From: Eledone cirrhosa
Lineage: Eukaryota
DNA length: 64,000 bases
Reading direction: 5' to 3'
NCBI GenBank assembly: GCA_964016885.1
Contig: OZ024744.1
Coordinates: 58,652,001-58,716,000, forward strand
Shown here: one piece after another, positions 1 through 37,235 of the stretch
Numbering within the stretch: position 1 is the first letter of the stretch
Layout of the letters: each line of letters begins with the position of its first letter
The notes under the pieces: generated by a model
What the model was told of the DNA's origin: nothing
Database searches by the model: none
What the model saw: only the letters and a program-made list of their open reading frames with translations
Position numbers and translations under genes: made by a program

Positions 1-641
1 GCATGTCCGAGATGCGTGCAGGGCGACGAAACCGTCCTGCACGCACTCGTCCAGTGTCCGAGCATTGCGACTTGTGGGTTTATGTCGAACACCTGCTGTC
101 ACGTGTAGGACGGATCCAGCTATCAGCTGAGTCCATCGTGAGCATTGCCCCGCCCTCTTCCTTTAGCCGGGAAGGGCAGGCAGTTTGTATCTGTCTGGTG
201 GCCATGGCGAAAGAGATAGTATGGTGGACACGTTTGAAAGGGCTGAAGACGAGCACTTACCTCTTCGGTGATACCCTAAGTAACTTTTTCAAATTTCATT
301 TGAAAAGGAAAATCAGGGTAGAGAGGGAAGTGCTCTCTTCCCACCATTTTGTTGAAAGATGGGTGAGAGAAGCAAGTATGGCCCGAGTGAATGGGCCTAC
401 TCTGAGTATGTGTCTGTAAATTAAAGGTGGAAACTGGGAGAGGGCACTTGCCCTGGTGGTCAGGGCCACTGTGGTCTTTTAATGGGCTTTCTCCACAAAT
501 GTCCCTCGGAAGTCTCCCCCCTATTGGGGAATTTTTCTTTGTTATTTTATTACATCCTCTGTTTTTTTTACACGCAGAAATGCCCATTTGTACCGTCCTG
601 TATTGTCCTGTACTGTCTTTAATGTCTACTTTATGTAAACC
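1..641 (+). mobile_element. 3' end of Tx1/L1-clade non-LTR element, family A (copy 0)
   Basis: ORF2 C-terminus (..EIVWWTRLKG..RVNGPTLSMCL*, stop at 419) and 3'UTR nearly identical to copies at 12.6-18.6 kb and 25.9-31.9 kb. 1-nt deletion near 70. The last ~20 nt including AATAAA are missing; runs into (TTA)n. Confidence 0.93.
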
Positions 642-686
<45 letters not shown>

Positions 687-696
687 GTTGTTGTTA
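642..696. repeat. (TTA)n linker between Tx1 3' end and Dong 3' end
   Basis: Read directly. Similar linkers at 981-1007, 4916-4973, 5163-5180, 6651-6688, 12603-12623, 18651-18686, 25782-25792, 25862-25882, 31913-31934, 33015-33079, 36620-36645. Confidence 0.97.
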
Positions 697-980
697 TTCC
701 TTGAATCTCAGTCATTGATGTTGGTTAACTGGAAAGTCCGTTGGATTGAATATCAAGCCACTACCTGCAGCCTCAGATATTCAGGACGTATCGGAGGGTT
801 CTTGCTGTTCCAAGCAAGCATGCCTTTTGAAGCGTTCCAAAAAGCGTGAAGGGGCCGATTTTCTTTAACCATCCCTGGAAACTTTTGGAGATAGTCCCCA
901 GTGCGCCTATGACAATCGGGATCACTTTGACTTCATGGCAGTTCCAAATCCTTTTCACCTCCCACTTTAGGTCCTGGTAT
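697..980 (-). mobile_element. 5'-truncated R4/Dong-like element, subfamily A (3'-terminal 284 bp)
   Basis: Encodes KRIWNCHEVKVIPIVIGALG..LQKACLLGTARTLRYVLNI*. Near-identical to 1008-1290. Flanked by (TTA)n on both sides. Confidence 0.92.
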
Positions 981-1007
981 TTATTATTATTATTATTATT
1001 GTTGTTA

Positions 1008-4000
1008 TTCCTTGAATCTCAGTCATTGATGTTGGTTAACTGGAAAGTCCGTTGGATTGAATATCAAGCCACTACCTGCAGCCTCAGATATTCAGGACGT
1101 ATCGGAGGGTTCTTGCTGTTCCAAGCAAGCATGCCTTTTGAAGCGTTCCAAAAAGCGTGAAGGGGCCGATTTTCTTTAACCATCCCTGGAAACTTTTGGA
1201 GATAGTCCCCAGTGCGCCTATGACAATCGGGATCACTTTGACTTCATGGCAGTTCCAAATCTTTTCACCTCCCACTTTAGGTCCTGGTATCGGTTAATTT
1301 TCTCCCTCTCCTTCTCTTGCACTCTCGTGTCGAACGGGCAGGCCACATCCACAATCAGACACGATCTTTTTTCTTTGTCCACAACCACCAGGTCAGGTCT
1401 ATTGTGTTCCAGTTTTTTGTCCGTCTGTATCCTAAAATCCCACAGCACCTTCACCTGATTGTTCTCCATCACCGCCTCTGGCCTATGCTCATACCATTTC
1501 TCAGAATGTGGTAAATTGTTTACTTTGCACAGGTGCCAGTGGATCACCCTGCCCATCACATCGTGTCTCCAGCCCTTATAGTGGGTCTGGGCTAGGTGTT
1601 TACACTCGGACACAATGTGAGCCACAGTCTCCTCTCTCTCTCCACAGATCCTGCACAGTGGGCTAGCCTCCTCCTTGTAGATATGGTGCTTCAACCACTT
1701 CGTTTTGAGGGCCTGCTCCTGCGCAGCCATTAGCATTCCTTCTGTAGCCTTTTTGAGGTCTCCTCTTCTCAACCAGTTCCATGTCTGTGGATCTCTAAAT
1801 TCAGTTTTCTCAAAGAAGGTACTATGAAGGGATTTTCCCTTAAGGCTGCTCTTCCTCCTTGATGTTATTTCCTCCTTGGACATCCCCTGGCCTACTGTCC
1901 CCTCCTTCAGTACAGTTCTGAGCATTGGCTCCTTACTATAGGTCACGTATTTGTATAGGTTGTTTTTCTCCATCTGAACACAGTCCTCTATGCTGATAAG
2001 ACCTCTTCCACCCTCAGATCTCCTTAGGTAGAGTCTATCGACATCACTCCTCCTGTGGAACATGTTGTAGATAGTCAATAGCTTCCTAGTCTTCCTATCC
2101 ATTTCTTTTTGTTCAGCAACATTCCATCTCAGAATTCCCGCACTGTACCTAATAATAGACACAGCTCGGGAATTTACTGCGCTTATGGCATTTCTGCTGT
2201 TCAGATGTGACTTCAATACGCTCCTTACTCTCCGAATGTATTCAGTTCTTAACAATTCCTTCATGTTTTTGTTCTTTATGCCATCAGCCTCCAGAACGCC
2301 CAAATACTTGTATCCTTCCTCAGAGTCAATTTCCTTTATCATCTCACCTGTTGGTATCTGGATCCCGTTACTTCTGCTCAACCTACCCCTCTTCATCACA
2401 ATGACTCCACATTTACCAATACCAAACTACATACATATATCACTGCTGAAAATACGGACAGTGTCAACAAGCACATCCAACTCCTTCTCACTTTTCCCGA
2501 AGAGCTTAAGATCGTCCATGAAGAGGAGGTGATTGATGGTAAGCTCTCCCCTTCCCAACTTGTATCCTGCTCTCACTTTTCGCAGCATAATGGTCAAGGG
2601 CATCAGGGCAAGGACAAACAACAGAGGGGACAGGCTATCTCCCTGGAAGATACCTCTCTTGATCTTCACGCTTCCCAAGCATACTCCAGTTGATGTCAAC
2701 TCTGTCTCCCAGGACCCCATACTCCTGCCTAGCAACTGTCTGATGTTATCTGCCACACTGAAGATCTCCAGGCTTTTGGTGATCCAGGAATGAGGCACCA
2801 TGTCAAATGCCTTTCTGTAGTCTATCCATCCCATGGCAAGATCAGTGTGTCTCCTCCTGCAATTCCCCATTACCATCTTATCAATAAGTAACTGGTCCTT
2901 TGTACCACGTGACTTCTTTCGGCATCCTTTCTGTTCGTCCGGTAACAAGTTGTTTGTGTGGAGGTGATGGTAGATTTCCTCAGACACAATGCTCGTCAAC
3001 AGTTTCCACATTACGGACAGACATGTGATAGGTCTATAGTTGGTAACATCATTACCCTTGATTCGGTCTTTCATTATCAGAACTGTGGTACCTTTTGTCA
3101 ACCACTCTGGCACCTCACCCGACACCAAGCAGTCATTGAACATGGCCGTCAGCTTCGGGTGGAGGGATGTTAAATGTTTAATCCAATACCCCTGCACACC
3201 ATCTGGGCCTGGTGATTTCCAGTTGGTTAGTTTTTTGGCCTGCCCCTTAAGAGTTTCAACTGTGATACTCAAATCAGTTTGTTGTTGTGCCTGCTCACCG
3301 ATCTCCCTCTGTACTGTCTCAATCCACCCTGCCTGGGCATGGTGTCTAACATCCTGCTCCCATATTCCTCTCCAGAATGTTTTAGTTTGCTCCGCCCCAG
3401 GGATCAAGTCGTTGCCTCTTTCTTTCCCCTCAAGCTGTCCAAACAGCATCTTCTGGTTGTTGTCGAACATGCGGTTCTGTCTATACTGACTGACTCTGTT
3501 CTCGTATCGCCTGATTTTTGCACTCTTTGCTACAATGCGTTGCTTCAGTTCCTCTATGATAATATTTAGCTTTTTCCTCCTAGTTTTGTATTTTATTTCC
3601 AGCCTATTTTTAGTGCCTATGTTTTTTAGTGTCCCATTCAGTAGTGACTCAAGCTTTCCTATGTCATTTCTCATTTCCCCGATTTGCCCACTCAGTCGCT
3701 TCTTCCACCACGGCTCTGCTCTTTCTTGTCTGTTGTTTCCTCTCGCTTTTATACCAAGTAGTTTCCTCACCGTATTTGCTGTTGCTTTGAGGATATTGTT
3801 GCACTGGTGAAGGCTCCTCCCCTCAAGGTATGGGATGACTTTGTTTACCTTAGCTGTTGTTTCTTTTAACTTTTTCCTGTCTACAAATCTTAGGTTCATA
3901 GGTCTCCCACTATCATTGTTCAATTCATCTACCACTAAATTTAGGATGTCAACCGAATCTTGTCCTAGCCCGTCAGCATTCATCTCCTCAGTGGCCGTAT

Positions 4001-4655
4001 CTCTGTTCCAGGTATTATTTATCTCAGTATTCAGATCATTGTCTGCTTCGGGTGGTTCCTCCGTTCTCAGGACCTCTTCACCTTCATTTCCCACTGGCTC
4101 GCTTGTCTGGCATACTACACCCGCCATCTCCAAGCCATTCTCTCTGCTCAGTTCCTCCAGTTCCAGCTCGCTTATCCATCCATTAGTTCTTATTACCCGA
4201 GCCTGCCCGGCCAATTTTTGTTCATCTAATTTAAATAAACCAATCTCGTTCCAGATGTTATGCATCCGTCTCCTGTAGCCCCTCTCCTTGGGGTTACTTT
4301 TCAGGTAACATTGCATAACAGTTCTATTCAATTCTTTCGTCCAGTTGGTTCTGGCCCCTTTCCTTCTTCTCCTTCCTCCAACATCAGCAGTATTTGGTTG
4401 ACAGTCAGGTTCCTGCTGCTGAGCCAGGGGGCACCTGTTGGGTGAGAGTCTGTCACATGACGTTCTGGTCTCCATTTCACCGTTATTCGAACTGTTTATG
4501 TTCGATATTTAAACACTCTTATCGAGGATTGGCGAATGTATGGTTACATATCCATCTGTGGATCCGCCATTCCACTTGGCCCTTGTGTGGCATTATCACC
4601 TCGCTGTATACGAACACACATAAACAAACAAACACACAGGCAGAAAGGGCCCCAA
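1008..4655 (-). mobile_element. Near full-length R4/Dong-clade non-LTR retrotransposon, subfamily A
   Basis: Single long RT+RLE reading frame; 3' end abuts a (TAA)n tail. 5' boundary uncertain (4550-4720). Confidence 0.9.
1084..4475 (-). pseudogene. R4/Dong-type polyprotein (RT, CCHC finger, restriction-like endonuclease), two lesions
   Basis: RT motifs [63 protein letters not shown] finger, RHD, and RPDLVVVD..IVDVACP..EKEREKINRY (PD-(D/E)xK-type RLE). In-frame TAG at 2427-2429 and 1-nt deletion near 1260. Confidence 0.92.
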
Positions 4656-4725
4656 AAATGAATAAGCATAAGTTTCATTGTAATGTAGTGTTCGAATGTC
4701 TGACTTAGTTTTTGTTTTTTAAGTT

Positions 4726-4912
4726 TCGGAGGGTTCTTGCTGTTCCAAGCAAGCATGCCTTTTGAAGCGTTCCAAAAAGCGTGAAGGGGCCGATTTTCTT
4801 TAACCATCCCTGGAAACTTTTGGAGATAGTCCCCAGTGCGCCTATGACAATCGGGATCACTTTGACTTCATGGCAGTTCCAAATCCTTTTCACCTCCCAC
4901 TTTAGGTCCTGG

Positions 4913-4915
<3 letters not shown>
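4726..4915 (-). mobile_element. R4/Dong-A internal fragment
   Basis: Matches ~791-980, including the same ggtat|ttatta junction; lacks the 3'UTR. Confidence 0.88.
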
Positions 4916-4974
<59 letters not shown>

Positions 4975-5162
4975 GAGGGCGGTGGATTGGCAGTATCGGT
5001 AGAGGGTCGGACGCCATGCTTTCCAGCATAGTTACGTCCCTTTACAATCTGAGTTCAAATCCCGCCAAGGTTGACTTTGCCTTTCATCCTTACGGGGTCG
5101 ATAAAATAAAGTACCAGTAATGCACTGGGTAACTACTGGCCTTGTGCCTAAAGTAGAAACAA
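4975..5162 (+). mobile_element. tRNA-derived SINE with (ATT)n tail
   Basis: A-box-like tggcagtatcgg, B-box gagttcaaatccc, body gactttgcctttcatcc..gtcgataaaataaagtaccagt. Three more copies in the window. Resembles abundant octopus SINEs (from memory). Confidence 0.85.
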
Positions 5163-5180
5163 TTATTATTATTATTATTG

Positions 5181-6439
5181 TTCTTTGAGTCTCAGTCATT
5201 GATGTTAGTTAACTGGAAAGTTTGTTGAAATGAATATCAAGCCACTACCTGCAGCCTCAGATATTCAGGACGTATCGGAGGGTTGTTGCTGTTTCCAGCA
5301 AGCATGCCCTTTGAAGTGTTCCAAAAAGCGAGGCGGGACCAATTTTCTTTAACCATCCTTGGAAACTCTTTGAGATAGTACCTAGTGCGCCTATGACAAT
5401 CGGGACCACTTTGACCTCATGGCAGTTCCAAATCCTTTTTACCTCCCACTTTAAGTCCTGGTATCAATTAATTTTCTCCCTCTCCTTTTCTTACACTCTC
5501 GTGTCGAATGGGCAGGCTACATCCACAATCAGGCACGATCTTTTTCCCTTGTCCAAAACCACCAGGTCAGGTCTATCGTGTTCCAGTTTCTTGTCCATCT
5601 GTATCCAAAAATCCCATAGCACCTTCACTTGATCGTTTTCCATCACCGACTCTGGCTTATGCTCCTACCACTTCTCAGAATGTGGTAAATTGTTTACTTT
5701 GCACAGGTGCCAGTGGATCACCCTGCCCATCACATCATGTCTCCAGCCTTTATAGTGAGTCTGGGCTAGGTGTTTACACTCGGATACAATGTGAGCTAGA
5801 GTCTCCTCTCTCTCTCTCCACAGATCCTACACAGTAGGCTAGCCTCCTCCTTGTAAATATGGTGTTTCAGCCACTTCGTTTTGAGGGCCTGCTCTTGCAC
5901 AGCCATTAGCATTCCTTCTGTAGCCTTTTTAAGGTCTCCTCTTTTCAACCAGTTCCATGTCTGTGGATCTCTGAATTCAGTTTTCTCAAAGAAGGTACTA
6001 TGAAGGGATTTTTCATGAAGGTTGCTCTTTCTCCTTGTTGTTATTTCCTCCTTGGACATCTCCTGGTCTATTGTCCTCTCCTTCAGTACAATTCTGAGCA
6101 TTGGCTCCTTACTATCGGTCGCGTACTTGTGTAGGTTGTTTTTCTCCATTCCTCTATGCTGATAAGACCTCTTCCACCTTCAGATCTCCTAATGTAGAGT
6201 CTATCGACATCACTCCTTTTGTGGAACATGTTGTAGATAGTCAATAATTTCCTAGTCTTCCTATCCATTTCTTTTTGTTCAGCAACATTCCCTCTCAGAA
6301 TTCCCGCACTGTACCTAATAATAGACACAGCTCGGGAATTTACTGAACTTATGACGTTCCTACTGTTCAGATGTGACTTTAATACGCTCCGTACTCTCCG
6401 AATGTTTTCAGATCTTATCAATTCCTTCATTTTTTTGTT
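5181..6439 (-). mobile_element. 5'-truncated, decayed R4/Dong element, subfamily B
   Basis: Frameshifted RT C-terminal and RLE fragments (RSEGGRGLISIE, EGMLMAVQEQAL, CRICG). Matches 33081-34337. (TTA)n on both sides. Confidence 0.9.
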
Positions 6440-6462
6440 ATTATTATTTTTTTTTTTTTTTA

Positions 6463-6650
6463 TGGCCTTTCTCCACAAATGTCCCTCCTAAGTTTCCCCC
6501 CTATTGGGGAATTTTTCATTGTTATTTTTTTTGTTACATTCTCTGTTTTTGTTTTTTTACACTCAGAAATACCCATTTGTACCGTCTATATTGTCCTGTA
6601 CTGTCCTTAATGTCTACTTTATGTAAACCCTTGTGGTTAATAAAGAAAGC
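6463..6650 (+). mobile_element. Tx1-A 3'UTR-only fragment
   Basis: Matches the family A 3'UTR ending ccttgtggttaataaagaaagc followed by (ATT)n; preceded by a T-run. Confidence 0.88.
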
Positions 6651-6688: not shown

Positions 6689-9600
6689 GAATGCTATGGT
6701 TGACGGAGGCTCGGCTCTGTAAGGTATTGTAAATTTTGAACACTATAACAATTGTAAATTGTTTAAAACTTTAACCAACTTGTAGACAAAAACACCCTCC
6801 TCCTCGTGAGAGGGGTCTTTCTGCCCGTTATTTGGCCCTTCGGGATTAAATAACTGCTTATTGGGGTTTTGTGCCCAATATTTATTTTAAACAAAAAAAC
6901 AACATGGCTACGAAAAAGAATTTTCATAGGTCACTCCCACTCATTCCGTCTTCTTCTTCCTCAATCGTCACTACAGCAGAGAGAAGATTGTCTCTCTCCC
7001 TCCCTTCTCTTTCGCAAGCGAAGACAGAAAAGAAAAGTCTCGTGCAAAGCGTGCAAGATTTCTCCACGACGACGACAACGACGAAACAGGTGTGCGGGAA
7101 ATACGAAAACCCAGTTCATTCGTCTGACGTCAGGAATAATAGCAGTAGCAGCCGTAATAACAACAGCAACAGTGACAATGAAAACAACAGTAGCAGCCGC
7201 AACAGCATCACCAGCAGCATAAACAACAACAGCATTAGCAGCAGGAACACCAACAACAACCACAGCAACAGCGGCGGAGGCAGTAGTCGTAGTACCTGCA
7301 GCAACAACAAAAGTAACAGCAGCTCTGACGACGACAACAACAACAGCAGCAAAGAAAAACCAATCTCATTTGCAGGTATTGCGAAGAACCTGGAAAAAAT
7401 CCTCATAACAAATGAGGAATTAGAGGAAACGAAGAAGATGGTGACAAAGACTGGACACCGAGCAATCTGCAAGGCAACGGAAAAATTTTTCGAAACCCAA
7501 CAGCACTGTACGGTCACGTACCGTACAGTAAGTACAAAATCCCGTAGGGTTGAAAGAGCCACAGAGGCTCAAATACAAAAAGCCTTGGGATCTGTGTGGC
7601 CGCGGAAAACGCACATCACCCGAGGCAAAAAATATGCCACCGTAAACGGACTTTTTACCACACCCCAGGAGGCAAAGGCTCAATCCGTAGTGACACTAAG
7701 GAGCGAGGAAATGGTGTTGGTGCCCTCCTACTGCGGGCAAAAATTTGTGAGGGTCAAACTGACCCACGTCCGTCCGTCCGTCCCCCCCCCCCGTCCCCCG
7801 GGATGGCCCCTTCTTGGCTGGCCGCGTCTGTCCTCGTCGGAATCGAGGACAAAACAACTGTACTGCAAGTACAGAAAAAAGTAAGAGAAGATTGGGTCGG
7901 CACCTCCATTGAGATGCTAATCCAAACCAACCAGGAGTGCATCGAAGCTATCCCGGATGTGATAGACTTCGATAACAGCACTCAACTTCCCATAAGTGTT
8001 GAGGGCAAACGCCCGAAATGCTTTCGCTGCGGATCGAAGACTCACGTCAGGGCCTTCTGCAACGAGAAGACCCTGAGAAAGGAGAAAACCCCCTCCTTCC
8101 GAAACCGGCTCCACGGCTACCAGCAACAGGACAAGCGGCAACCAGGAACGATAGGTCCGTGGCACCCATACCCACGCCACGGAAATCAAAAACAGCAGCA
8201 GCAGTGGAAATATTAACAACAACAACAGCAATACCAAATGCAGCTGCAACAGAGCCTCCAGTGCAAACATCACCAACAACAACAAGTGAAAGAGTGGAGC
8301 TGGTACTCCTCCCCGACCTCACAGAATCAGACATGGAGTGTGAGGTGGGAGAGGGATGGCAAAGGTCGTAAGAAGGCACAAACGCAGAAGCAGCGCATCG
8401 TCGCCTTTGAAAAGGGAGGAAAGAAATGAGAAAAGGGTAAAGTCTACTGCAAAGAAACTCACAGCAGCAACACCACCAACACCATTACCACCCACACTAA
8501 CACCACCATCACCACCGGCGACAACCGCACCGCCAACAACACCTTCAACACCACCACCACAAGCACCAACATCGCAAACACAACAACAAAACACACACAC
8601 CCAGCAACAACGACAAGAAAATAGCAGAACCACACACCACCCCCAGAAAAACAAATGCACGGCAATAAATACACACAACAAGAAACTAATGACTTACATA
8701 ATTGAACACACAGATATTTCACAAACCGACTACATAATACCAGCACCAATCAAAACGCCAACTAACATAAGACTGCTAAAAATAGCACAGAAACAATACA
8801 CAAATATTAAAACGAAATTCCCCAACGCAGTTGGTGATTTCAGGGACCTAGGAGGAACTATCAATCGAAGAGTATATTCGGACATACTCATAAAAGAGCC
8901 GACGACCAGCCGAAGGGACGATTCAACGGTCCCTTCACCAGACGATCAAGTGAAAAGGGATGGAAAAACCATCCCTCCTCTACGAAAAGTACGGTAAGTG
9001 GTCTTTCCCATCTTTTCCACTCTATTTTAAACATGACCTCACTCAGAATAGGCAGCATAAATGCGCGTGGCTTGGGGTCGTCATGGAAGCAGGGTCACCT
9101 GCTCAACGACCTCAGGTCACTAAACATAGATGTAGTGGCCATCAGCGAGACCAGAATCTCCGAAGCACGGGCCTTCGCACCGATCTTCGGCGGCTACGAT
9201 GTGTACGCATCTCCCAGCCGTCCTGGATCGGGGGTAGGAGTTGCTGTGCTTTTTCGGAGAGGTTTGGATCTCGCCATACGGGCCATCTTCCTGGACCCAG
9301 AGGGTAATCTGATGGTGCTGGACGTGACCAGCGGAGACGGGCAAGCTTTCAGGCTAGTGGCCGTCTATGCCCCGACAGGAGCAGGGCGGCCTGATTTCTT
9401 CCGGCGTCTGGAGACTTTTCTTGGAACGTCCCGCTCTTTAGTGTTAATGGGCGACTGGAACGTGATCTTAGATGCATGCAAGAGCCTCACCAACCTGCTC
9501 AGGCGTTTTGAACTGTCTGACAGGTATCGATTGGATTTCCCGAATGTGCCAATGTGGACTTGGACAAATCGCATATGGTCATCCAGATCATATCTAGATA

Positions 9601-12600: not shown

Positions 12601-12602
12601 TC
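6689..12602 (+). mobile_element. Full-length but disabled Tx1-A element (copy 1)
   Basis: Same 5' start (att|gaatgc) and 3' end as the intact copy. ORF1 (ATG 6904 to 8997) is frameshifted. ORF2 (from 9033) has deletions near 9476, 10204 and 12349 and stops near 10419, 10545 and 11649. Confidence 0.95.
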
Positions 12603-25781: not shown

Positions 25782-25792
25782 ATTATTATTAT

Positions 25793-25861
25793 AAAACCCC
25801 ACTGTCCCAGTCATTTGTATTGTCCCCTATATGTCGGCCCTTGTGGCCAATAAATCAAATC
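25793..25861 (+). mobile_element. ~70-bp 3'-terminal fragment of Tx1 family C
   Basis: tgtattgtcccctatatgtcggcccttgtggccaataaatcaaatc between two (ATT)n tracts. Confidence 0.75.
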
Positions 25862-25882
25862 ATTATTATTATTATTATTATT

Positions 25883-28800
25883 GAATGCCATGGTTGACGG
25901 AGGCTCGGCTCTGTAAGGTATTGTAAATTTTGACCGCTATAACAATTGTAAATTGTTTAAAACTTTAACCAAATTGTTGATAAAGACACCCTCCTCCTCG
26001 TGAGAGGGGTCTTTCTGCCCGTTATTTGGCCCTTCGGGGTTAAATAACTGCTTATTGGGGTTTTGTGCCCAATATTTATTTTAAACAAAAAAACAACATG
26101 GCTACGAAAAAGAATTTTCATAGGTCACTCCCACTCATTCCGTCTTCTTCTTCCTCAATCGTCACTACAGCAGAGAGAAGATTGTCTCTCTCCCTCCTTT
26201 CTTTAAATGTGTCTCTCTCCCTCCCTTCTCTTTCGCAAGCGACGAAAGAAAAGAAAAGACTCGTGCAAAGCGTGCAAGATTTCTCCACGACGACAGCGAC
26301 GAAACAGGTGTGCGGGAAATACGAAAACCCATTTCATTCGTCTGACGTCAGGAATAATAGCAGTAGCAGCCGTAATAACAGCAGCAACAGTGACAATGAA
26401 AACAACAGTAGCAGCCGCAACAGTGACAATGAAAACAACAGTAGCAGCCGCAACAGCATCACCAGCAGCATCAACAACAACCACAGCAACAGCGGCGGCG
26501 GCAGTAGTCGTAGTACCTGCAGCAACAACAAAAGTTACAGCAGCTCTGACGACAACAACAACAACAACAGCAGCAAAGAAAAACCAATCTCGTTTGCAGG
26601 TATCGCGAAGAACCTGGAAACAATCCTCATAAAAAATGAGGAATTAGAGGAAGCGAAGAAGATGGTGACAAAAACAGGACACCGAGCAATCTGCAAGGCA
26701 CCGGAAAAATTTTTCGAAACCCAACAGCACTGTACGGTCACGTACCGTACAATAAGAATAAAATCCCATATGGTTGAAAGAGCCACAGAGGCTCAAATAC
26801 AAAAAGCCTTGGGGTCTGTGTGGCCGCGGAAAACGCACATCACCCGAGGCAAGAAATATGCCACCGTAGACGTACTTTTTGCCACACCCCAGGAGGCAAA
26901 GGCTCAATCCGTAGTGACCCTAAGGAGCGAGGAAATGGTGTTGGTGCCCTCCTACTGCGGGCAAAAAATTGTGAGGGTCAAACTGACCCACGTCCCCCCC
27001 CCCCCCTGGGATGGCCCCTTCTTGGCTGGCTGCGTCTGTCCTCGTCGGAATCGAGGACAAAACAACTGTACTGCAAGTACAGAAAAAAGTAAGAGAAGAT
27101 TGGGTCGGCACCTCCATTAAGATGTTAATCCAAACCAACCAGGAGTGCATCGAAGCTATCCCGGATGTGATAGACTTCGATAACGGCACTCAACTGCCCA
27201 TAAGTGTTGAGGGCAAACGCCCGAAATGCTTTCGCTGTGGATCGAAGACTCACCTCAGGGCCTTCTGCAACGAGAAGACCCTGAGAAAGGAGAAAACCCC
27301 CCTCCTTCCGAAACCGGCTCCACGGCTACCAGCAACAGGACAAGCGGCAACCAGGAACGATAGGTCCGTGGCACCCATACACACGCCACGGAAATCAAAA
27401 ACAGCAGCAGCACTGGAAGTATTAACAACAACAACAGCAATACCAAATGCAGCTGCAACAGAGACTCCAGTGCAAACATCACCAACAACAACACGTGAAA
27501 GAGTGGAGCTGGTACTCCTCCCCGACCTCACAGAATAAGACATGGAGTGTGAGGTGGGAGAGGGATGGCAAAAGGTCGTAAAAAGCACAAACGCAGAAGC
27601 AGCGCATCGTCGCTTTTGAAAAGGGAGGAAAGAAATGAAAAAAGGGTAAAGTCTACTGCAAAGAAACTCACAGCAGCAACACCACCAACACCATCACCAC
27701 CCACACTAGCACTACCATCACCACCGGCGACAACCCCACCGCCAACAACAACAACACCTTCAACACCACCACCACAAGCACCAACATCGCAAACACAACA
27801 ACAAAACACACACACCCAGCAACAACGACAAGAAAATAGCAGAACCACACCCCACCCCAGAAAAACAAATGCACGGCAATAAATACACACAACAAGAAAC
27901 TAATGACTTACATAATTGAACACACAGACATTTCACAACACGACTACATAATACCAGCACCAATCAAAACGCCAACTAACATAAGACTGCTAAAAATAGC
28001 ACAGAAACAATACACAAACATTAAAACGAAATTCCCCAACGCGGTTGGTGATTTCAGAGACCTAGGAGGAACTATCAACCGAAGAGTATATTCGGACATA
28101 CTCATAGAAGAGCCGACGACCAGCCGAAGGGACGATTCAACGGTCCCTTCACCAGACGTTCAAGTGAAAAGGGATGGAAAAACCATCCCTCCTCTACGAA
28201 AAGTACGGTAAGTGGTCTTTCCCATCTTTTCCACTCTATTTTAAACATGACCTCACTCAGAATAGGCAGCATAAATGCGCGTGGCTTGGGGTCGTCATGG
28301 AAGCAGGGTCACCTGCTCAACGACCTCAGGTCACTAAACATAGATGTAGTGGCCATCAGCGAGACCAGAATCTCCGAAGCACGGGCCTTCGCACCGATCT
28401 TCGGCGGCTACGATGTGTACGCATCTCCCAGCCGTCCTGGATCGGAGGGAGGAGTTGCTGTGCTTTTTCGGAGAGGTTTGGATCTCGCCATACGGGCAAT
28501 CTTCCTGGACCCAGAGGCTAAGTTGGTGGTGCTGGACGTGACCAGCGGAGACGGGCAAGCTTTCAGGCTAGTGGTCGTCTATGCCCTGACAGAAGCAGGG
28601 CGGCCTGATTTCTTCCGGCGTCTGGAGACCTTTCTTGGAACGTCCCGCTCTTTAGTGTTAGTGGGCGACTGGAACGGGATCTTAGATGCACGCTGGGACT
28701 GTGTGAGATTAGCGGATAGGGGTGGAGGGTGCAAGAGCCTCACCAACCTGCTCAGGCGTTTTGAACTGTCTGACAGGTATCGATTGGATTTCCCGAATGT

Positions 28801-31800
28801 GCCAATGTGGACTTGGACAAATCGCATATGGTCATCCAGATCATATCTAGATAGAGTATTTTGTAGGGAAATAGATAGGTCTAGCATAGGCTGTCCACAA
28901 TTCAAGATAGTCAGCTACACGGACCACAAATTCCTGATCTGTGTGCTTGACTTAGATAGGCTTCATAGACGAGGACCCGGCTACTGGAATCTAAACGCGT
29001 CCTTACCAGAGCGCAAGTCCTACAGAGACCGGATTAGCGAACTAGTTAAGCGGGCGTTGACGGGGGCCATCGTCAACAACAAGTGGTGGTTTTCTCTGAA
29101 AAGAGCGATTAGAATAGAATCGATTAGGTTTAGTAAGGCTTTAGCAATAGAGAAAAATAGAGAAAAAGGGAGAACTAGTTAGAAAATTAGACGAGGCGCT
29201 TAGCAAAGGCATTGCGACCGACGTGCTTGCGGCGTAATTAGCCCTTGACCAATTCTTCAATGCAAAGCACGAAGGCTGCGTTGTTAGAGCAAAGGTGCGT
29301 GCTCTCAGACACGAGGGGACGAAAGCCGTTCAATGGGCCCGATTGGCGAAGGCGCGTCGTAGCAACAAAGCCACGATCCGGTCTTTGGTGGACCACGACG
29401 GGCGCATGCTACTCGATCCCGGGCAAATGTGTGAAGCTTTTCAGCGACACTTTGCTTAGCTGTTCGGGGGCAGCGGTGGGCCGGGTCGAGGGATGGACTT
29501 TAGTGTCTACCTCGACGGACTGCCGCGGCTCTCGGCCACTGAGGCGAAGTGTTGCGAAAGGCCGATAACAGCCGCTGAAGTAAGGGAGGCAATGACTGGC
29601 TGCACAGGGGGTAAATCGCCTGGTTTGGATGGTCTGCCCTATGAACTTTACGTACAGATGCCAGACTTGTTCGGAGGCCTCTTGGCGGACGTCTACTGCA
29701 ACTGGCAACAGAACGGGAGAATTCTCAGTTCTGTGATCCGAGGAGCGGTGGCACTGCTGAGAAATGTTCCGAACAAGGGGGATAACATAGATAATTTGCG
29801 GCCCATAACTCTGCTAAACACATAGTTCAAGATTTTGGCCAAGGTGCTAGCAAAGAGGTTGGCGCTTGTCGTTGGTGGTCTGCTGGAAGAGGCGCAGACA
29901 TGCGCCATTCCCGACAGATCCATCCACGACAACCTCCACCTCATGCGATACATCGTAGAGAGGGTAGCTAAGGAACCTGGCACGGGTGGGTCCTTGATCA
30001 ATTTAGATCAGTCGAAAGCTTTCGATAGGGTCGACCATCGTTACCTAGCGGCAGTCCTGAGGGCGGCTGGCTTTGGGCCCGTCTTCAGAGGCTGGATCGC
30101 TGCCATGCACAGCGACATCTGCTCTGTGGTGAGAGTGAACGGTCACCTGTCGGAACCGTTCAACATCATGCGCTCGATCCGCCAAGGATGTCCCCTCTCG
30201 TCCCTCTTGTACGTATTGACTCTCGAGCCATTACTGCACAAACTGGAGACGTTGAGGGGCGTCCCGCGCGAACTAGGATGCGGAAGATCCGTGTCAGCAT
30301 ATGCGGACGATGTCACCGTAGTGGTGTCGAACACCAAACACATCGAGGCGATCGGCACTACACTAAGAGAATACGAAACGGTGACAGGAGCAATGATCAA
30401 CCAGGAAAAGTCAGTGGGCCTGCAGCTCGGCACCTGGAGAGGCAGGTCCATGCCGTCCATCAGCCTCGTCGGACGTTGGACGGACGGACCGGTTAAATTG
30501 CTAGGGGTCTGGTTCGGTCCGGACCTCCAGACGGACAAAAACTGGGACGAGGTGACGAGCAGGGTGGCTTCTCTCACCCAGAAATGGGCGGAGAGGAAGC
30601 TATCCCTGAAAGGTCGAGCGGAGGTAGCTAACGCGTACATCACGTCTGTCATCTGCTACCGCCTGACCGTCGTACCTTGTCCTAAGCCTCGCCTGACTGC
30701 GCTGGAGCGTTTGCTCTTTCGCTTTTTGTGGAAGGGACGCGCTCCGATGGTCAGGCGGTCCATCTGCTGTCAACACCCGCTACGTGGAGGGCTGGGCATG
30801 CCGTGGCTGATGATGCGCAGACACGCGCTCAGGCTACGACATCTCCACCTCTTCATCGACGGTGATCAGGTGTGGTCGCCGTTTGCAAGACACGTTTTTC
30901 CCCAGCTCGTCTCTTTGACGGAGCTGCAGTCCTGGGTCAAGCGAAGACCGAGAGGGAGCGCTTGGAGACTGGAATGTCTTCAGGCGCTCACAGCCCTCGA
31001 CCAATCGGGCAATGTGATCGGTGGAAACTCCACCTTGGCGTTCTATAGGGGATTAGTGGAGGGGAAGAGCGACGACGTACTTGGAGAAACTCTAGGCGTC
31101 GACGAAAATCAACTAGCCAATCTCTTCGGAAGAACTTTCGGGTCGGGGCCTATGGACGACTTCCAGAAATCCTTGGCCTGGCAGTGCTACCGAGGAGCTT
31201 TGCCAGTTCGGGATAAACTCTACAGGCATGGAGGTGCCGTCAGCCGGGCATGTCCGAGATGCGTGCAGGGCGACGAAACCGTCCTGCACGCACTCGTCCA
31301 GTGTCCGAGCATTGCTGACTTGTCGGTTTATGTCGAACACCTGCTGTCACGTGTAGGACGGATCCAGCTATCAGCTGAGTCCATCGTGAGGATTGCCCCG
31401 CCCCCTTCCTTTAGCCTGGAAGGGCAGGCAGTTTTTATCTGTCTGGTGGCCATGGCGAAAGAGATAGTATGGTGGACACGTTTGAAAGGGCTGAAGACGA
31501 GCACTTACCTCTTCGGTGATGCTCTGATTGACTTTTTCAAATTTCATTTGAAAAGGAAAATCAGAGTAGAGAGGGAAGTGCTCTCTTCCCAGCATTTTGT
31601 TGAAAGATGGGTGAGAGAAGCAAGAATGGCCCGAGTGAATGGGCCTACTCTGAGTATATATCTGTAAATTAAAGGTGGAAAACTGGGAGAGGGCACTTGC
31701 CCTGGTGGTCAGGGCCACTGTGGTCTTTTAATGGGCTTTCTCCACAAATGTCCCTTGGAAGTCTCCCCCCTATTGGGGAATTTTTCTTTGTTATTTTATT

Positions 31801-31912
31801 TCAACCTCTGTTTTTTTTTACACGCAGAAATGCCCATCTGTACCGTCCTGTATTGTCCTGTACTGTCCTTAATGTCTACTTTATGTGAACCCTTGTGGTT
31901 AATAAAGAAAAC
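25883..31912 (+). mobile_element. Full-length but disabled Tx1-A element (copy 3)
   Basis: Same termini as copy 2. ORF1 from ATG 26098 has frameshifts and a stop. ORF2 28247-31667 has a frameshift near 29165 and stops including TAG at 29823-29825. Confidence 0.95.
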
Positions 31913-31934
31913 ATTATTATTATTATTATTGTTA

Positions 31935-33014
31935 TTCCTTGAATCTCAGTCATTGATGTTGGTTAACTGGAAAGTCCGTTGGATTGAATATCAAGCCACT
32001 ACCTGCAGCCTCAGATATTCAGGACGTATCGGAGGGTTCTTGCTGTTCCAAGCAAGCATGCCTTTTGAAGCGTTCCAAAAAGCGTGAAGGGGCCGATTTT
32101 CTTTAACCATCCCTGGAAACTTTTGGAGATAGTCCCCAGTGCGCCTATGACAATCGGGATCACTTTGACTTCATGGCAGTTCCAAATCCTTTTCATCTCC
32201 CACTTTAGGTCCTGGTATCGGTTAATTTTCTCCCTCTCCTTCTCTTGCACTCTCGTGTCGAACGGGCAGGCCACATCCACAATCAGGCACGATCTTTTTT
32301 CTTTGTCCACAACCACCAGGTCAGGTCTATTGTGTTCCAGTTTTTTGTCCGTCTGTATCCTAAAATCCCACAGCACCTTCACCTGATTGTTCTCCATCAC
32401 CGCCTCTGGCCTATGCTCATACCATTTCTCAGAATGTGGTAGATTGTTTACTTTGCACAGGTGCCAGTGGATCACCCTGCCCATCACATCGTGTCTCCAG
32501 CCCTTATAGTGGGTCTGGGCTAGGTGTTTACACTCGGACACAATGTGAGCCACAGTCTCCTCTCTCTCTCCACAGATCCTGCACAGTGGGCTAGCCTCCT
32601 CCTTGTAGATATGGTGCTTCAACCACTTCGTTTTGAGGGCCTGCTCCTGCGCAGCCATTAGCATTCCTTCTGTAGCCTTTTTGAGGTCTCCTCTTCTCAA
32701 CCAGTTCCATGTCTGTGGATCTCTAAATTCAGTTTTCTCAAAGAAGGTACTATGAAGGGATTTTCCCTTAAGGCTGCTCTTCCTCCTTGATGTTATTTCC
32801 TCCTTGGACATCCCCTGGCCTACTGTCCCCTCCTTCAGTACAGTTCTGAGCATTGGCTCCTTACTATAGGTCACGTATTTGTATAGGTTGTTTTTCTCCA
32901 TCTGAACACAGTCCTCTATGCTGATAAGACCTCTTCCACCCTCAGATCTCCTTAGGTAGAGTCTATCGACATCACTCCTCTTGTGGAACATGTTGTAGAT
33001 AGTCAATAGCTTCC
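31935..33014 (-). mobile_element. 5'-truncated R4/Dong-A element
   Basis: Open frame for the CCHC and RLE region (track ORF 32011-33099; its poly-Ile N-terminus is the TAA repeat). (TTA)n on both sides. Confidence 0.93.
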
Positions 33015-33079
<65 letters not shown>

Positions 33080-33080
33080 G

Positions 33081-36000
33081 TTCTTTGAGTCTCAGTCATT
33101 CATGTTATTTAACTGGAAAGTTTGTTGAAATGAATATCAAGCCACTACCTGCAGCCTCAGATATTCAGGACGTATCGGAGGGTTCTTGCTGCTCCTAGCA
33201 AGCATGCCTTTTGAAGTGTTCCAAAAAGCGGGGCGGGACCAATTTTCTTTAACCATCCTTGGAACTCTTTGAGATAGTACCTAGTGCGCCTATGACAATC
33301 GGGACCACTTTGACCTCATGGCAGTTCCAAATCCTTTTTACCTCCCACTTTAAATCCTGGTATCGGTTAATTTTCTCCCTCTCCTTCTCTTGCAGTCTCG
33401 GGTCGAATGGGCAGGCAACATCCACAATCAGGCACGATCTTTTCCCTTGTCCCAAACCACCAGCTCTGGTCTATTGTGTTCCAGTTTCTTGTCCGTCTGT
33501 ATCCTAAAATCCCACAGCACCTTCACCTGATCGTTTTCCATCACCGACTCTGGCTTATGCTCATACCATTTCTCCGAATGTGGTAAATTGTTTACTTTGC
33601 ATAGGTGCCAGTGGATCACCCTGCCCATCACATCATGTCTCCAGCCCTTATAGTGAGTCTGGGCTAGGTGTTTACACTCGGATACAATGTGAGCCACAGT
33701 CTCCTCTCTCTCTCTCCACAGATCCTGCACAGTAGGCTAGCCTCCTCCTTGTAAATATGGTGTTTCTGCCACTTCATTTCGAGGGCCTGCTCTTGCACAG
33801 CCATTAGCATTCCTTCTGTAGCCCTTTTAAGGTCTCCTCTTTTCAACCAGTTCCATGTCTGTGGATCTCTAAATTCAGTTTTCTCAAAGAAGGCACTATG
33901 AAGGGATTTTTCATGAAGGTTGCTCTTTCTCCTTGTTGTTATTTCCTCCTTGGACATCCCCTGGTTTTTTTGTCCTCTCCTTCAGTACAATTCTGAGCAT
34001 TGGCTCCCTACTATCAGTCACGTATTTGTGTAGGTTGTTTTTCTCCATCTGAACACAGTCCTCTATGCTGATAAGACCTCTTCCACCTTCAGATCTCCTT
34101 AAGTAGAGTCTATCGACATCACTCCTTTGTGGAACATGTTGTAGATAGGCAATAGCTTCCTAGTCTTCCTATCCATTTCTTTTTGTTCAGCAACATTCCA
34201 TCTCAGAATTCCCGCACTGTACCTAATAATAGACACAGCTCGGGAATTTACTGCACTTATGGCATTCCTACTGTTCAGATGTGACTTTAATACGCTCCTT
34301 ACTCTCCGAATGTATTCAGATCTTATCAATTCCTTCATTTTTTTGTTCTTGATGTCATCAACCTCCAGAGCACCTAAATATTTGTATTCCTCTTCAGCAT
34401 CAATTTCCTGTTGGTACCTGGATTCCGTTGCCTCTGCTCAATGTACCCCCCTTCATCACAAGGACACCACACTTACTAATACCAAATTGCATACATATAT
34501 CATTGCTGAAAAATACGGACAGTGTCAACAAGCCCATCCACCTCTTTCTCACTCTTCCCGAAGAACTTAAGATCGTCCATGAAGAGGAGGTGATTGATGG
34601 TAAGCTCTTCCTTTCCCAACTTGTATCCTGCTCTCACTTTTCGCAGTATAATGGTCAGGGGGATCAGGGTAAAGGCCAAACAACAGAGGGGACAAACTAT
34701 CTCCCTGGAAGATACCTCTCTTGATCTTCACGCCTCCCAAAGATTCTCCACTCGATGTTGACTCTGTTTTCCAGGACTTCATACACTTGCTCAACAACTG
34801 TCTGATGTTATCTGCCACCCTGAAGATCTCTAGGCTTTTGGTTATCCAAGAATGAGGTACCATGTCGAATGCCTTTTTGTAGTCTATCCATCCCATGGCA
34901 AGACCAGTGTGTCTCCTCCTGCAATTCCTCATTACCATCTTATCAATAAGTAACTGGCCCTTTGTACCACGGGACTTCTTTCGGCATCCTTTCTGTTCGA
35001 CCGGTAACAAGTTGTTTATGTGGAGGTGATGGTAGATTTCCTCAGACACAATGCTTGTTAACAGTTTCCACATTACAGACAGACACATGTGATAGGTCTA
35101 TAGCTGGTAACATCATTACCTTTGGTTCGGTCTTTCATTACCAGAACCGTGGTACCTTTTGTCAACCACTCTGGTACCTCACCTGACATCAAGCAGTCAT
35201 TGAACATGTTTGTCAGTTTCGGGTGGAGGGATGTTATATTTGTAATCCAATACCCTTGCACACCATCTGGGCCTGGTGATTTCCAGTTGGTCAGTTTTCT
35301 GGCCTGCCCCTTAAGAGTTTCAACTGTGATACTCAAATCAGTTTGTTGGTGTGCCTGTTCACTAATCTCCTTTTGTAGTCTCAATCCACACTGCCTGATC
35401 ATTATGTTCAACATCCTGCTCCCATATTCCTCTCCAGATGTCTTAGTTTGTTCCGCCTCAGGGATCAAGTCATTACCTCTTTCTTTCCCTTCAAGCTGTC
35501 CAAACAACATCTTCTGGTTGTTGTCAAACATGCGGTTCTGTCTATACTGACTGACTCTGCTCTCGTATCGCCTAATCTTTGCGCTCTTTGCTACAATGCG
35601 TTGCTTCAGCTCCTCTATGATAATATTTAGCTTTTTCCTCCTAGTTTTGTACTTTATTTCTAGTCTATTTTTAGTGTCTATGTTTTGTAGTGTCCCATTC
35701 AGTAGGGACTCAAGCTTTCCAATGTCATTTCTCATTTCCCTGATTTGACCATTCAGTCGTTTCTTCCATCAAGGTTCTGATCTTTCTTGTTTGTTGTTTC
35801 CTCTCGCTTTTATGCCAAGTAATTTCCTCACCGCATTTGCTGTTGCTTTGAGGATATTGTTGCACTGGTGAAGGTTCCTCGCCTCAAGGTATGGGATGAC
35901 TTTGTTCACCTTAGCTGTTGTTTCTTTTAACTTTTTCCTGTCTACAAATCTTAGGTTCATAGGTCTCCCACTATCATTGTTCAATTCATCTACCACTAAG

Positions 36001-36619
36001 TTTAGGATATCAACCGAATCTTGTCCTAGCCCGTCAGCATTCATTTTCTCAATGGGCGTATCTTTGTTCCAGGTATTATTTATCTCAGTATTCAGATCAT
36101 TGTCTGCTTCGGATGGTTCCTCCGTACTCTCAACCTCTTCACCTTCATTTCCCACTGGCTCGTTTGCCTGGCATACTCCACTCTCCATTTCCAACCTAAT
36201 CTCTCTGCTCAGTTCCTCTAGTTCCAGCTCGCTTATCCACCCATTAGTTCTAATTACCCGAACCTGCCCGGCCAATTTTTGTTCATCTAATTTAAATAGA
36301 CCAATCTCGTTCCAGATGTTATGCATCCGTTTCCTATAGCCTTTTTCCTTGGGGTTACTCTTCAGGTAACATTGCATAACAGTTCTATTCAATTATTTCG
36401 TCCAGTTGGTTCTGGTCCCTTTCCTCCTTCTTCTTTCTCCAACACCAATAGTATTTGGTTGACAGCCAGGTCCCTGCTGCTGAGCCAGGGAGCACCTGGT
36501 GGGTGAGAGTCTGTCACATGACATTCTAGTCTCCACTTCGCCGTTATTCGAACTGTTTAGGTTCGACATTTAAACACTCATATCGAGGATTGGTGAATAT
36601 ATGGTTACATAACCACCGG
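33081..36619 (-). mobile_element. Near full-length, decayed R4/Dong element, subfamily B
   Basis: Colinear with 1008-4555. Coding region 36536 to 33157 is broken by several frameshifts and stops. Both ends abut (TTA)n. Confidence 0.92.
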
Positions 36620-36645
36620 TTATTATTATTATTATTATTATTATT

Positions 36646-37235
36646 GGTCTAAGCGGACGTATTTTGCTCGCTCACAGTAAGTCGCTTTATTTGCCTGTTT
36701 AAATTATTTGTTGTTAAATATTTCTTGTTGTGTAAGGGATATAAGCCCTTAGACTTTGCCCCGTGAAGGGGAAAGTATAATATTTGGGCCTTTTGGCCCA
36801 AATATTTGAACTTTTTTTTACATGTTAAAAAATTTACGAAGAAAAAAAAAACATGGCTGAGCCTCGCCCCCCAGCGATATGTCGGCTGTCGTGCGACAAC
36901 GACGTAGAAGTTGAGAGGAGCGCTACAGCGAAATTAACACACATTGATAACACAAACACCACCACAAACAAGGTAAACAAAGACACCAATGATACCAATA
37001 AGAACTCTAATTTTGAAAAAAATGACAGTAACAGCGACAACGAAAATACAGATAACAACAAAAAAAATAACAAATACAACAACAATATCAACACCACTAA
37101 CATGAAAACAAATAGCGACAACACCAACAGCAACAATACCAACTGCACCGAGAACAACGGTGTCAACAAAGACAACAATGATAACAGCGACAGTGCTAAC
37201 AACAACACCAACAAGAACAACGACAACATACTGCA
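36646..37235 (+). mobile_element. Probable 5' end of a further Tx1-like family (D): structured 5'UTR plus Asn-rich ORF1 start
   Basis: Starts directly after (TTA)n. ~205-nt leader with hairpins, aaaaacATGg at 36853, N/D/T-rich low-complexity frame like family A ORF1; truncated. Assigned by architecture only. Confidence 0.55.

Follow-up and report, generated by a model that had tools for sequence, protein, structure and literature searches.

Anatomy of the array

The window is a 64,000-nt stretch of Eledone cirrhosa DNA (GCA_964016885.1, OZ024744.1:58,652,001-58,716,000, forward strand), in which positions 1-37235 form an array of retrotransposon pieces (Table 1). We identified 16 pieces, namely, nine L1/Tx1-like elements (APE), six Dong/R4-like elements (RLE), and one SINE, which together cover 35,258 of the 37,235 bases (95%). 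The SINE had been overlooked in the initial annotation, which had described about 15 LINE pieces on (TTA)n linkers with no exception in orientation. Both statements were borne out, since we found 15 LINE pieces and 15 TTA runs, and all nine APE pieces lie on the + strand and all six RLE pieces on the - strand. If the 14 insertion events were free coin tosses, this polarity would arise about once in 8,000 cases, a figure of simple arithmetic for events that are not fully independent, because the polarity of a linker passes to each of them.

The 15 TTA-phase runs of at least 9 nt in the array are accompanied by no TAA-phase run, and the remainder of the window holds 5 TTA-phase runs and 1 TAA-phase run. 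A TTA run adjoins 25 of the 31 piece ends (12/15 5' ends and 13/16 3' ends), the piece boundaries having been set with the TTA runs in view and matching copy-to-copy alignments in the multicopy cases; outside the array, only 0.6% of positions have such a run at a distance of 13 nt or less. Copies diverge by 0 to 10% and their breakpoints vary, thus fitting repeated independent insertion. No telomere-type unit was present among 68 TRF rows and the array linkers are TTA, so the locus does not have the repeat of a telomeric insertion. Ordinary-looking genomic DNA lies beyond the array edge at 37 kb.

A unique-looking gap had been placed at about 18.9 to 20.2 kb. Its AT-rich part was confirmed, but the sequence from position 19957 onward is separate and stands behind a (TTA)4 run. 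The last 220 bp of the AT-rich part resemble the end region of a Penelope-like element at 38 kb (0/200 shuffles). We found no support for positions 19957-20230 as a 5' UTR of C1, since 263 to 286 of 500 shuffles reached the score obtained against family B or D. The array copy of the SINE sits in a linker in ATT polarity. Three further copies outside the array, out of four in total, are all at non-TTA sites, indicating that landing in the array does not call for strict specificity.

Table 1. Features of the array, in window positions
Feature	Position	Strand	Basis or remark
B0, 3' part of APE family B, runs off window	1-642	+	copy alignment
(TTA)n linker, tail-to-tail	643-686		repeat run
A1, 5'-truncated RLE subfamily a, 294 bp	687-980	-	copy alignment
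(TTA)n linker between A1 and A2	981-1000		repeat run
A2, near full-length RLE subfamily a	1001-4725	-	domains, translation
A3, exact copy of first 190 nt of A1, shared 5' breakpoint	4726-4915	-	alignment
(TTA)19 linker, head-to-head	4916-4973		repeat run
SINE-like repeat	4974-5161	+	further copies outside the array
(ATT)6 linker	5162-5179		repeat run
A4, 5'-truncated RLE subfamily b	5180-6437	-	copy alignment
(TTA)3 and T run, head-to-head linker	6438-6462		repeat run
Bf1, 188-bp 3' stub of APE family B	6463-6650	+	copy alignment
B1, full-length APE family B, broken frames, (ATT)n both sides	6689-12602	+	domains, alignment
B2, full-length APE family B, both ORFs open	12624-18650	+	domains, ORFs
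E, 197-bp 3' stub of diverged APE family	18687-18883	+	followed by ATG(GTA)16
AT-rich gap with (AT)28	18933-19942		last 220 bp like end region of Penelope-like element
(TTA)4 run	19943-19956		repeat run
Possible 5' end of C1 or another repeat	19957-20459		no likeness to B or D 5' UTR
C1, APE family C, broken frames, ends in (ATT)3	20460-25781	+	domains, alignment
Bf3, 69-bp 3' stub of E-like APE family	25793-25861	+	copy alignment
B3, full-length APE family B, broken frames	25883-31912	+	domains, alignment
A5, 5'-truncated RLE subfamily a	31931-33014	-	alignment, domain match
(TTA)21 linker between RLE copies A5 and A6	33015-33079		repeat run
A6, near full-length RLE subfamily b, broken frames	33080-36619	-	domains, alignment
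(TTA)8 linker, head-to-head	36620-36645		repeat run
D, 5' UTR and ORF1 start, further APE-like family	36646-37235	+	5' UTR likeness

The APE elements belong to the L1 group

B2 has the layout of the L1 group, with two ORFs, of which ORF2 carries an N-terminal APE, an RT, and a C-terminal zinc motif (APE-RT-zf-RVT). ORF2 matched human L1 ORF2p at an E value of 2e-52 versus 1e-21 for R2, in line with this placement. ORF1 proteins of the Tx1 clade have RNA-binding domains and a CCHC knuckle. A knuckle of this kind, CX2CX4HX4C, was read in the translation of B2 ORF1, which in this respect is Tx1-like; its Atlas neighbors carry zf-CCHC and ZCCHC3-type RNA-binding domains (0.89-0.93), and Pfam gave no match to ORF1. 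In a tree that takes in B2, P0003, and the elements of G001, a MAG containing host DNA, but no named Tx1, Kibi, Koshi, or Keno reference, B2 grouped with P0003 and the G001 elements with a support of 99/100.

The full-length B copies are 96.3 to 97.1% identical in pairs, and neighboring ones differ at 3 to 4% of positions, spread evenly along their length. C1 is about 75% identical to family B, B0 lacks its last ~17 nt including the poly(A) signal, and D was assigned solely by the likeness of its 5' UTR to that of family B (score reached by 0/1000 shuffles). D is cut short by an RTE-like fragment on the - strand. As initially noted, nearly all APE pieces end in (ATT)n: it comes next at seven of eight 3' ends, the eighth being followed by ATG(GTA)16, and this flank is common to APE families that are about 75% identical to each other. 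Five of seven firm 5' junctions, from three families, are in phase ATT.

The RLE elements resemble Dong/R4

A2 harbors a single ORF encoding an RT, then a CCHC knuckle, and then a PD..D..K endonuclease, interrupted by one in-frame stop and by a frameshift near its end. Pfam found RVT_1 but not Exo_endo_phos in the RLE elements, and their endonuclease gave weak matches to that of R2 (E 0.007-0.027). The order of domains, with a PD-(D/E)xK-like endonuclease and no APE, is that of Dong/R4, and the C-terminal motifs are presumably like those of Dong-R4. Domain order and TAA flanks, rather than a tree with named references, thus suggest that the family is of the Dong/R4 type; among the 120 of 229 homologues listed, none bore a clade name.

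Identity is 99.0 to 100% within subfamily a, which comprises the youngest copies of the array, 95.5% within subfamily b, and 89.6 to 92.3% between the two. The surviving 3' ends were said to run into (TAA)n, and indeed all five run into (AAT)n, some via one to three AAC units. The four independent 5' junctions with a linker all end in phase TAA, and sense-strand TAA stands at four of five independent 5' ends, the fifth being that of A2, which is flanked by a 190- to 210-bp direct duplication consisting of the A1/A3 sequence and a linker. Rfam reported no ribozyme in positions 1-38000, the 16 weak matches all being under the gathering score and the strongest lying on AT/CA microsatellites. A loose HDV descriptor had no match in A2 or A6, a result of little power since the same descriptor matched 1 to 11 of 30 shuffles.

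A sister APE lineage forms arrays without TTA

In G001, the APE elements form long, single-orientation, head-to-tail arrays on 16 contigs, with about nine different types of linker and no poly(A). The comparison is a distant one, ORF2 being only 41% identical to that of the window APE, and binning favors array contigs. None of the 66 element ends has (ATT)n, and the Dong-like pieces of G001 sit outside the APE arrays, indicating that neither TTA nor an RLE partner is needed for the APE to stack. A microsatellite linker is likewise missing from all 66 ends, and the recognition of (ATT)n is therefore no trait of the lineage.

The array C17 has one ~17-nt linker at its 5' boundary, between its units, and at its 3' boundary; in C5 and C9 the linker continues into the 3' flank, and C19 and C4 have no linker at their 5' boundaries. 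Truncated units (5') stand directly behind the linker. Duplicated targets with varied 5' truncations, as in double insertions of the R1 type, thus occur both in the window and in C17. Linkers follow subfamilies and reappear on several contigs, so that subfamily-specific targets or carried-along ends would also account for them. Array units are 96 to 100% identical, two copies sharing one truncation. Sense-strand TAA stands at the 5' side of four of five Dong-like clusters. A telomeric role of these arrays finds no support, since the array C19 is bordered on either side by ordinary AT-rich DNA. At 64 metagenome loci, long matches were mostly 21 to 35% identical and no TTA/TAA run of at least 15 nt was present; viral contigs gave no match by protein or by pattern.

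Origin of the array

The reading that we favor, and consider probable if by no great measure, is that two independent selfish LINE classes, a Tx1-like (ATT)n branch and a TAA-targeting Dong, insert in (TTA)n linkers without any partnership. The array would have grown by repeated, independent target-primed insertions into these short linkers, the RLE acting as a Dong/R4-type TAA targeter that invades them and the APE as a Tx1-like head-to-tail stacker. The array branch of the APE would prefer (ATT)n, so that its tail and its target duplication would both be (ATT)n. RLE RNA ending in (UAA)n would prime on the TTA strand and APE RNA ending in (AUU)n on the AAT strand, the opposite polarity then resulting from the complementarity of the tails. 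Such complementary-strand priming is what standard target-primed reverse transcription predicts; likewise, we infer which strands are nicked, in what order most insertions took place, and that the APE prefers (ATT)n. As every insertion leaves the repeat on both flanks, the locus would go on supplying targets, and the duplication around A2 supports the earlier proposal that insertions re-create their target. The proposed convergence of APE and RLE on one repeat stands as regards the unrelated endonuclease classes, the shared linkers, and the opposite polarity, but not as regards (TTA)n recognition by the APE, given the sister lineage.

The (ATT)n preference is also opposed by the (GTA)16 after one APE stub and by the 5' end of C1, which is not placed at TTA, and the SINE in its linker likewise speaks against a need for strict specificity. 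The array contains no isolated (ATT)n with an APE copy away from other APE tails, and each (ATT)n upstream of an APE could be the tail or the target duplication of an earlier one. An APE without fixed target might instead re-insert where earlier copies have their 3' end, either recognizing that end as its own or base-pairing through a read-through 3' flank. It would thereby copy some 15 to 20 nt of the founder's site, here (ATT)n, with Dong as a secondary parasite of the linkers. We regard this as a possible but less likely course. It accords with the sister arrays, in particular the linkers of C17, C5, and C9 and the truncated units, with the youth of RLE-a, and with the fact that every head-to-head TTA linker in the window is readable as an APE tail linker split by an RLE. 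However, the subfamily-bound G001 linkers, the linker-free boundaries of C19 and C4, and the distance and binning bias of that lineage weaken it, as does the use of ATT in both array halves and by four APE families.

More doubtful is a version in which the target is carried in the RNA: about 15 to 20 nt past the poly(A) signal would pair with the nicked strand, each branch homing to its founder's site, and the (ATT)n branch would make fixed-polarity TAA targets that Dong exploits.

It is improbable that the array is a coupled system, tolerated or used by the host, in which APE and RLE converged on a shared safe harbor or a dual-strand small-RNA cluster. The strict opposite polarity of 15/15 LINE pieces, their convergent arrangement, the 95% coverage, and the SART/TRAS precedent in telomeric repeats would suit it, but the polarity is explicable without selection, the APE lineage arrays without Dong while Dong-like pieces lie outside those arrays, and frames are open in only one of four long APE copies and in neither of two long RLE copies. 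Host roles of the array, be it as safe harbor or as small-RNA source, are hypothetical.

That a small founder cluster expanded chiefly through unequal exchange or tandem duplication is very improbable and, for the window, largely refuted. B1 and B2 are full-length head-to-tail neighbors, an APE/RLE-a junction is present twice, and the highly similar G001 units include the pair with one truncation; yet the evenly spread differences between neighboring B copies argue against it, as do the interleaving of two RLE subfamilies with no fewer than four APE families and their differing breakpoints. A segmental duplication of the two similar junctions was rejected, since their sides diverged unequally (22/642 versus 4/1083 differences; Fisher P = 8e-7).

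Least credible is an assembly chimera of separate loci joined at microsatellites: a short repeat stands at every joint and sequencing run X1 is very rich in both families, but linkers of 11 to 65 nt are crossable by single reads, junction phases are consistent, the A1/A3 duplication is as one insertion predicts, and copies 96 to 97% alike were kept apart rather than collapsed. Four of the 24 listed sequencing runs were aligned to positions 19930-33020; among the pieces listed, none spans this interval or bridges an APE/RLE junction, and among the 21 of ~8,550 loose-end rows listed, none falls at an element end. In run X8, coverage of the RLE part at 88% likeness was very thin and that of the APE parts deep, which may reflect no more than a diverged RLE.

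Should the preference of the APE be borne out, ATT would join the microsatellites targeted by Tx1-like elements, and the array would offer a clear natural example of an APE and an RLE that use complementary strands of one repeat. Because both frames of B2 are open, its target choice is directly testable. The sister arrays with their many linkers likewise make it testable whether the endonuclease or an RNA-borne 3' flank determines the target; the latter, if true, would amount to LINE targeting programmed by the flank, in which a second LINE class lives on the linkers, and would be relevant to LINE-based insertion tools.

Comparison with known systems

The locus had been put forward as an undescribed system, a claim that we do not uphold, since Dong on TAA, Tx1 on microsatellites, APE/RLE convergence, and double-insertion arrays are all published. 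A literature search, largely of open-access papers and without Repbase Reports or the target alignments of PMC4494074, turned up neither a Tx1 element that targets ATT nor an array in which Dong and Tx1 are mixed.

Dong elements of the R4 clade, named Dong in Bombyx mori, DongAg, and DongBg in a snail, target TAA, the snail element included (PMC3812793; PMC3774820). Bombyx Dong has been shown to carry an HDV-like ribozyme at its 5' end. The window RLE shares with them the single ORF with RT, CCHC knuckle, and C-terminal restriction-like endonuclease, the sense-strand TAA at both ends, and the 5' phase TAA, as in the Bombyx Dong junction primer (PMC3812793; PMC3774820). It differs in that no HDV-like ribozyme was found at the 5' ends of A2 and A6 with our low-power descriptor, in its interleaving with an APE family, and in the long duplication around A2.

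Among Tx1 elements, Kibi, Koshi, and crocodilian families target (TC)n, (TTC)n, (TTCC)n, and (TTTC)n, and a family is called microsatellite specific if repeats flank more than 20% of its genome-wide copies (PMC4494074). Like Kibi and Koshi, the window APE is an L1-group APE-RT element with a microsatellite on both flanks, and its TTA is one base apart from the TTC of Koshi; in contrast, its unit is ATT and its sister lineage is without microsatellites. Keno (APE, Tx1 clade) and Utopia (RLE) both target U2 snRNA genes (PMC4640811) and thus are an APE and an RLE using one target in parallel, although this target is a gene rather than a microsatellite and the accessible text reports no opposite-strand mixed array (PMC4640811).

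SART and TRAS insert in opposite orientations in insect telomeric repeats and form arrays (PMC10088271). As in the window, two families are opposed in one short tandem repeat, but both are R1-clade APE elements at telomeres, while the window combines one APE with one RLE and has ordinary-looking DNA from 37 kb on. Finally, double insertions with the target duplication as linker are known for R1 of Drosophila and for tandem SINEU-3 (PMC5932611; PMC4494074). The head-to-tail copies with duplicated target between them, the tail-to-internal junctions, and the varied 5' truncations are common to these and the window, in which, however, the linker is a microsatellite also used by a second, unrelated class.

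Anatomy of the array

Within positions 1-37235 of the window, Pfam, self-BLAST and tblastn searches delimited nine APE-type pieces, all on the + strand, six RLE-type pieces, all on the - strand, and one SINE (+), together covering 94.7% of the interval. This arrangement is as the initial annotation had described it, although the SINE had been overlooked, as had the fact that the APE stub E ends in (GTA)16. The array held 15 TTA-phase runs of at least 9 nt but none in TAA phase, compared with five and one, respectively, in the remaining 26.8 kb of the window. A TTA run adjoined 25 of the 31 piece ends (background, 0.6%), the piece boundaries having been drawn with the TTA runs in view and agreeing with alignments where several copies were available. 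The remaining six lacked one: A2, Bf1 and C1 at the 5' end, and A3, E and D at the 3' end. The host is an animal whose DNA is AT-rich and rich in microsatellites, and the SINE together with the repeat content may point to an octopod.

When contigs from 4 of 24 sequencing runs were compared with positions 19930-33020 of the window, both LINE families proved highly abundant in run X1; no spanning piece and no element-end flanks were among the pieces listed from these four runs. Single-base indels in the APE copies C1 and B3 (23626, 27584, 27854, 28239 and 29166), at which other copies in the runs differ, could reflect either errors in the window sequence or genuine mutations.

Beside the array pieces, the window contains Penelope-like elements and RT fragments (see table). 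The second half of the array may have started from the Penelope-related remnant. Two hammerhead-like core motifs form an inverted pair at 38572-38721, and the RT fragment at 37.3 kb is, judging from its motif, presumably RTE-like.

Coordinates of repeats and other features in the window
Feature	Position	Strand	Remark
SINE-like copy	4974-5161		copies 95-99% alike
SINE-like copy	43055-43243		
SINE-like copy	54011-54149		
SINE-like copy	62119-62236		
Direct duplication flanking A2	788-1009 and 4723-4944		190-210 bp
UTR hairpin region, families B/D	12624-12842		
UTR hairpin region, families B/D	25883-26104		
UTR hairpin region, families B/D	36646-36858		
Penelope-related remnant	19723-19942		immediately before (TTA)4 at 19943
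Penelope-like element (RT + GIY-YIG)	38875-41388	+	outside array; short TTA/TAA runs near ends
Penelope-like element (RT + GIY-YIG)	58375-60754	-	outside array; short TTA/TAA runs near ends
RT fragment	37236-37500	-	no TTA linkers
RT fragment	45406-46809	+	Pfam; no TTA linkers
RT fragment	63233-63721	+	Pfam; no TTA linkers

The two LINE types

In the APE copy B2, ORF1 is open over 714 codons (stop to stop) and encodes a CCHC knuckle; its Atlas neighbours carry CCHC and ZCCHC3-type RNA-binding domains. Its ORF2, also open, encodes APE, RT and zf-RVT domains and matches human L1 (E 2e-52) better than R2 (1e-21). The element belongs to the L1 group and appears Tx1-like. B1, B2 and B3 are 96.3-97.1% identical to one another and C1 is ~75% identical to family B, while E and Bf3 are stubs of one further family and D is linked to the others by its 5' UTR only. 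(ATT)n directly followed seven of eight APE 3' ends, in agreement with the claim that nearly all end this way; a poly(A) signal lay a few bases before it in six of the seven, and these ends had no poly(A) tail. Five of seven firm 5' junctions were in phase ATT.

The 5' UTRs of B and D form two hairpins at matching positions just upstream of the start codon, kept despite low sequence identity. Some 500 bp upstream of C1 (19957-20459) match no assigned piece, and since the depth of ~20150-20400 in run X1 greatly exceeds that of the adjoining ORF1 of C1, this stretch may be a separate repeat.

The RLE element has a single ORF, which encodes RT, a CCHC knuckle and an endonuclease of the PD..D..K type with a weak match to R2. 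Copies of subfamily a (A1, A2, A3 and A5) are 99.0-100% identical and those of subfamily b (A4 and A6) 95.5%, with 89.6-92.3% between subfamilies. As had been proposed, the pieces end in a TAA repeat where the 3' end survives: (AAT)n followed 5/5 such ends. TAA closed all four independent 5' junctions that have a linker, in the phase of a Bombyx Dong junction primer (excerpt of PMC3774820); Dong targets TAA in silkworm, mosquito and a snail (excerpt of PMC3812793). Weak tests detected no HDV-like ribozyme in this element.

Polarity and growth

LINEs insert by target-primed reverse transcription, from which we infer the nicked strands for both elements. An RNA with a (UAA)n tail would use the nicked TTA strand for priming, and one with an (AUU)n tail the AAT strand; such complementary tails would thus give opposite orientations and renew the target on both flanks. 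It follows that opposite polarity needs no cooperation between APE and RLE elements. One SINE copy lies inside an array linker in ATT polarity, yet three of the four window copies sit at non-TTA sites, ending in a short ATT-like tail, so that tail-to-target pairing alone may set polarity. The last bases of the SINE resemble the APE 3' end, and the APE element may therefore be its mobiliser.

Read on the - strand, the left end consists of a TAA run, the first 190 nt of A1, the entire A2, a TAA run and whole A1; A1 and A3 have the same 5' breakpoint and are identical over 190 bases. This order is what would result if A2 had inserted once into the linker that lies upstream of A1 and the second nick had fallen 190 nt within A1; the repeated sequence would then be a target duplication. 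As a target duplication it would be unusually long; alternatively, local duplication by recombination may have produced it. Non-LTR arrays are known to arise by double insertion, in which the duplicated target becomes the linker (excerpts of PMC5932611 and PMC4494074). Two similar APE/RLE-a junctions were rejected as one segmental duplicate (22/642 versus 4/1083 differences; p = 8e-7).

Possible target preference in the APE lineage

In the window, each (ATT)n that precedes an APE 5' end can be read as a tail linker left by a previous APE copy, or as such a linker split by RLE copies, C1 with its ambiguous 5' end being a possible exception; recognition of (TTA)n by the APE enzyme therefore cannot be shown from the window. 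On balance we lean toward an ATT preference of the APE branch, rather than self-stacking, because four APE families in both array halves use ATT and other Tx1 families target microsatellites, namely, (TC)n, (TTC)n, (TTCC)n and (TTTC)n (excerpt of PMC4494074). Self-stacking of APE copies, the second reading, is less likely.

Close APE relatives with DNA context came only from animal-host contigs, a contamination, in the bacterial MAG G001 (43 of 45 homologous loci; ORF2 40-44% identical), and in an RT tree of 43 rows B2 and the homologous protein P0003 grouped with them (support 99/100). A survey of 35 regions on 16 contigs, a sample that may under-represent solitary copies because binning favours array contigs, covered 66 element 3' ends: orientation was uniform on each contig, (ATT)3 occurred within 40 nt of 0/66 ends, and about nine distinct short linkers followed the poly(A) signal. 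Dong-like fragments lay on four contigs, all outside arrays, with TAA on the sense strand 5' of four of five clusters. Since these arrays lack (ATT)n and the Dong-like pieces lie outside them, the APE lineage stacks with neither a microsatellite nor an RLE partner to help it.

On contig C17 one ~17-nt linker flanks the array on each side and separates its units, and on C5 and C9 the linker extends into the 3' flank. A simple reading of these linkers is opposed by C19 and C4, where the linker is missing at the 5' boundary, and by the recurrence of one linker on several contigs of a subfamily. The boldest reading, in which targeting by the APE lineage is flank-programmed and Dong makes use of its linkers, is improbable.

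The G001 arrays (C3-C15 and C17-C19; L065-L105, L108 and L120-L154) are head-to-tail Tx1-like arrays in animal host DNA, up to ~71 kb long (C9), with units of 5-7 kb, many with open ORF2, a short linker particular to each subfamily and no poly(A). Their elements have a UTR hairpin that looks similar to those of families B and D. Three further MAGs (L106, L107 and L109) hold L1-group LINE DNA with animal-like microsatellite flanks. This Tx1-like lineage merits study of its own.

Comparison with known systems

Dong-R4 and L1-Tx1 are listed among the active or expanded families of cephalopods, and excerpts of the two reports (PMC13282606 and PMC8967140) make no statement of their targets. Neither an ATT-targeting Tx1 nor a mixed Dong/Tx1 array came to light in the open literature searched; Repbase, subscription papers and the PMC4494074 supplements may hold such a case. 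The locus had been put forward as an undescribed system, but its component behaviours are already published, Dong on TAA among them. Keno and Utopia, like the elements here, are APE and RLE elements at one common site (excerpt of PMC4640811), and SART/TRAS likewise lie in opposite orientation within one repeat (excerpt of PMC10088271). The array is real and clean, but assembled from known parts.
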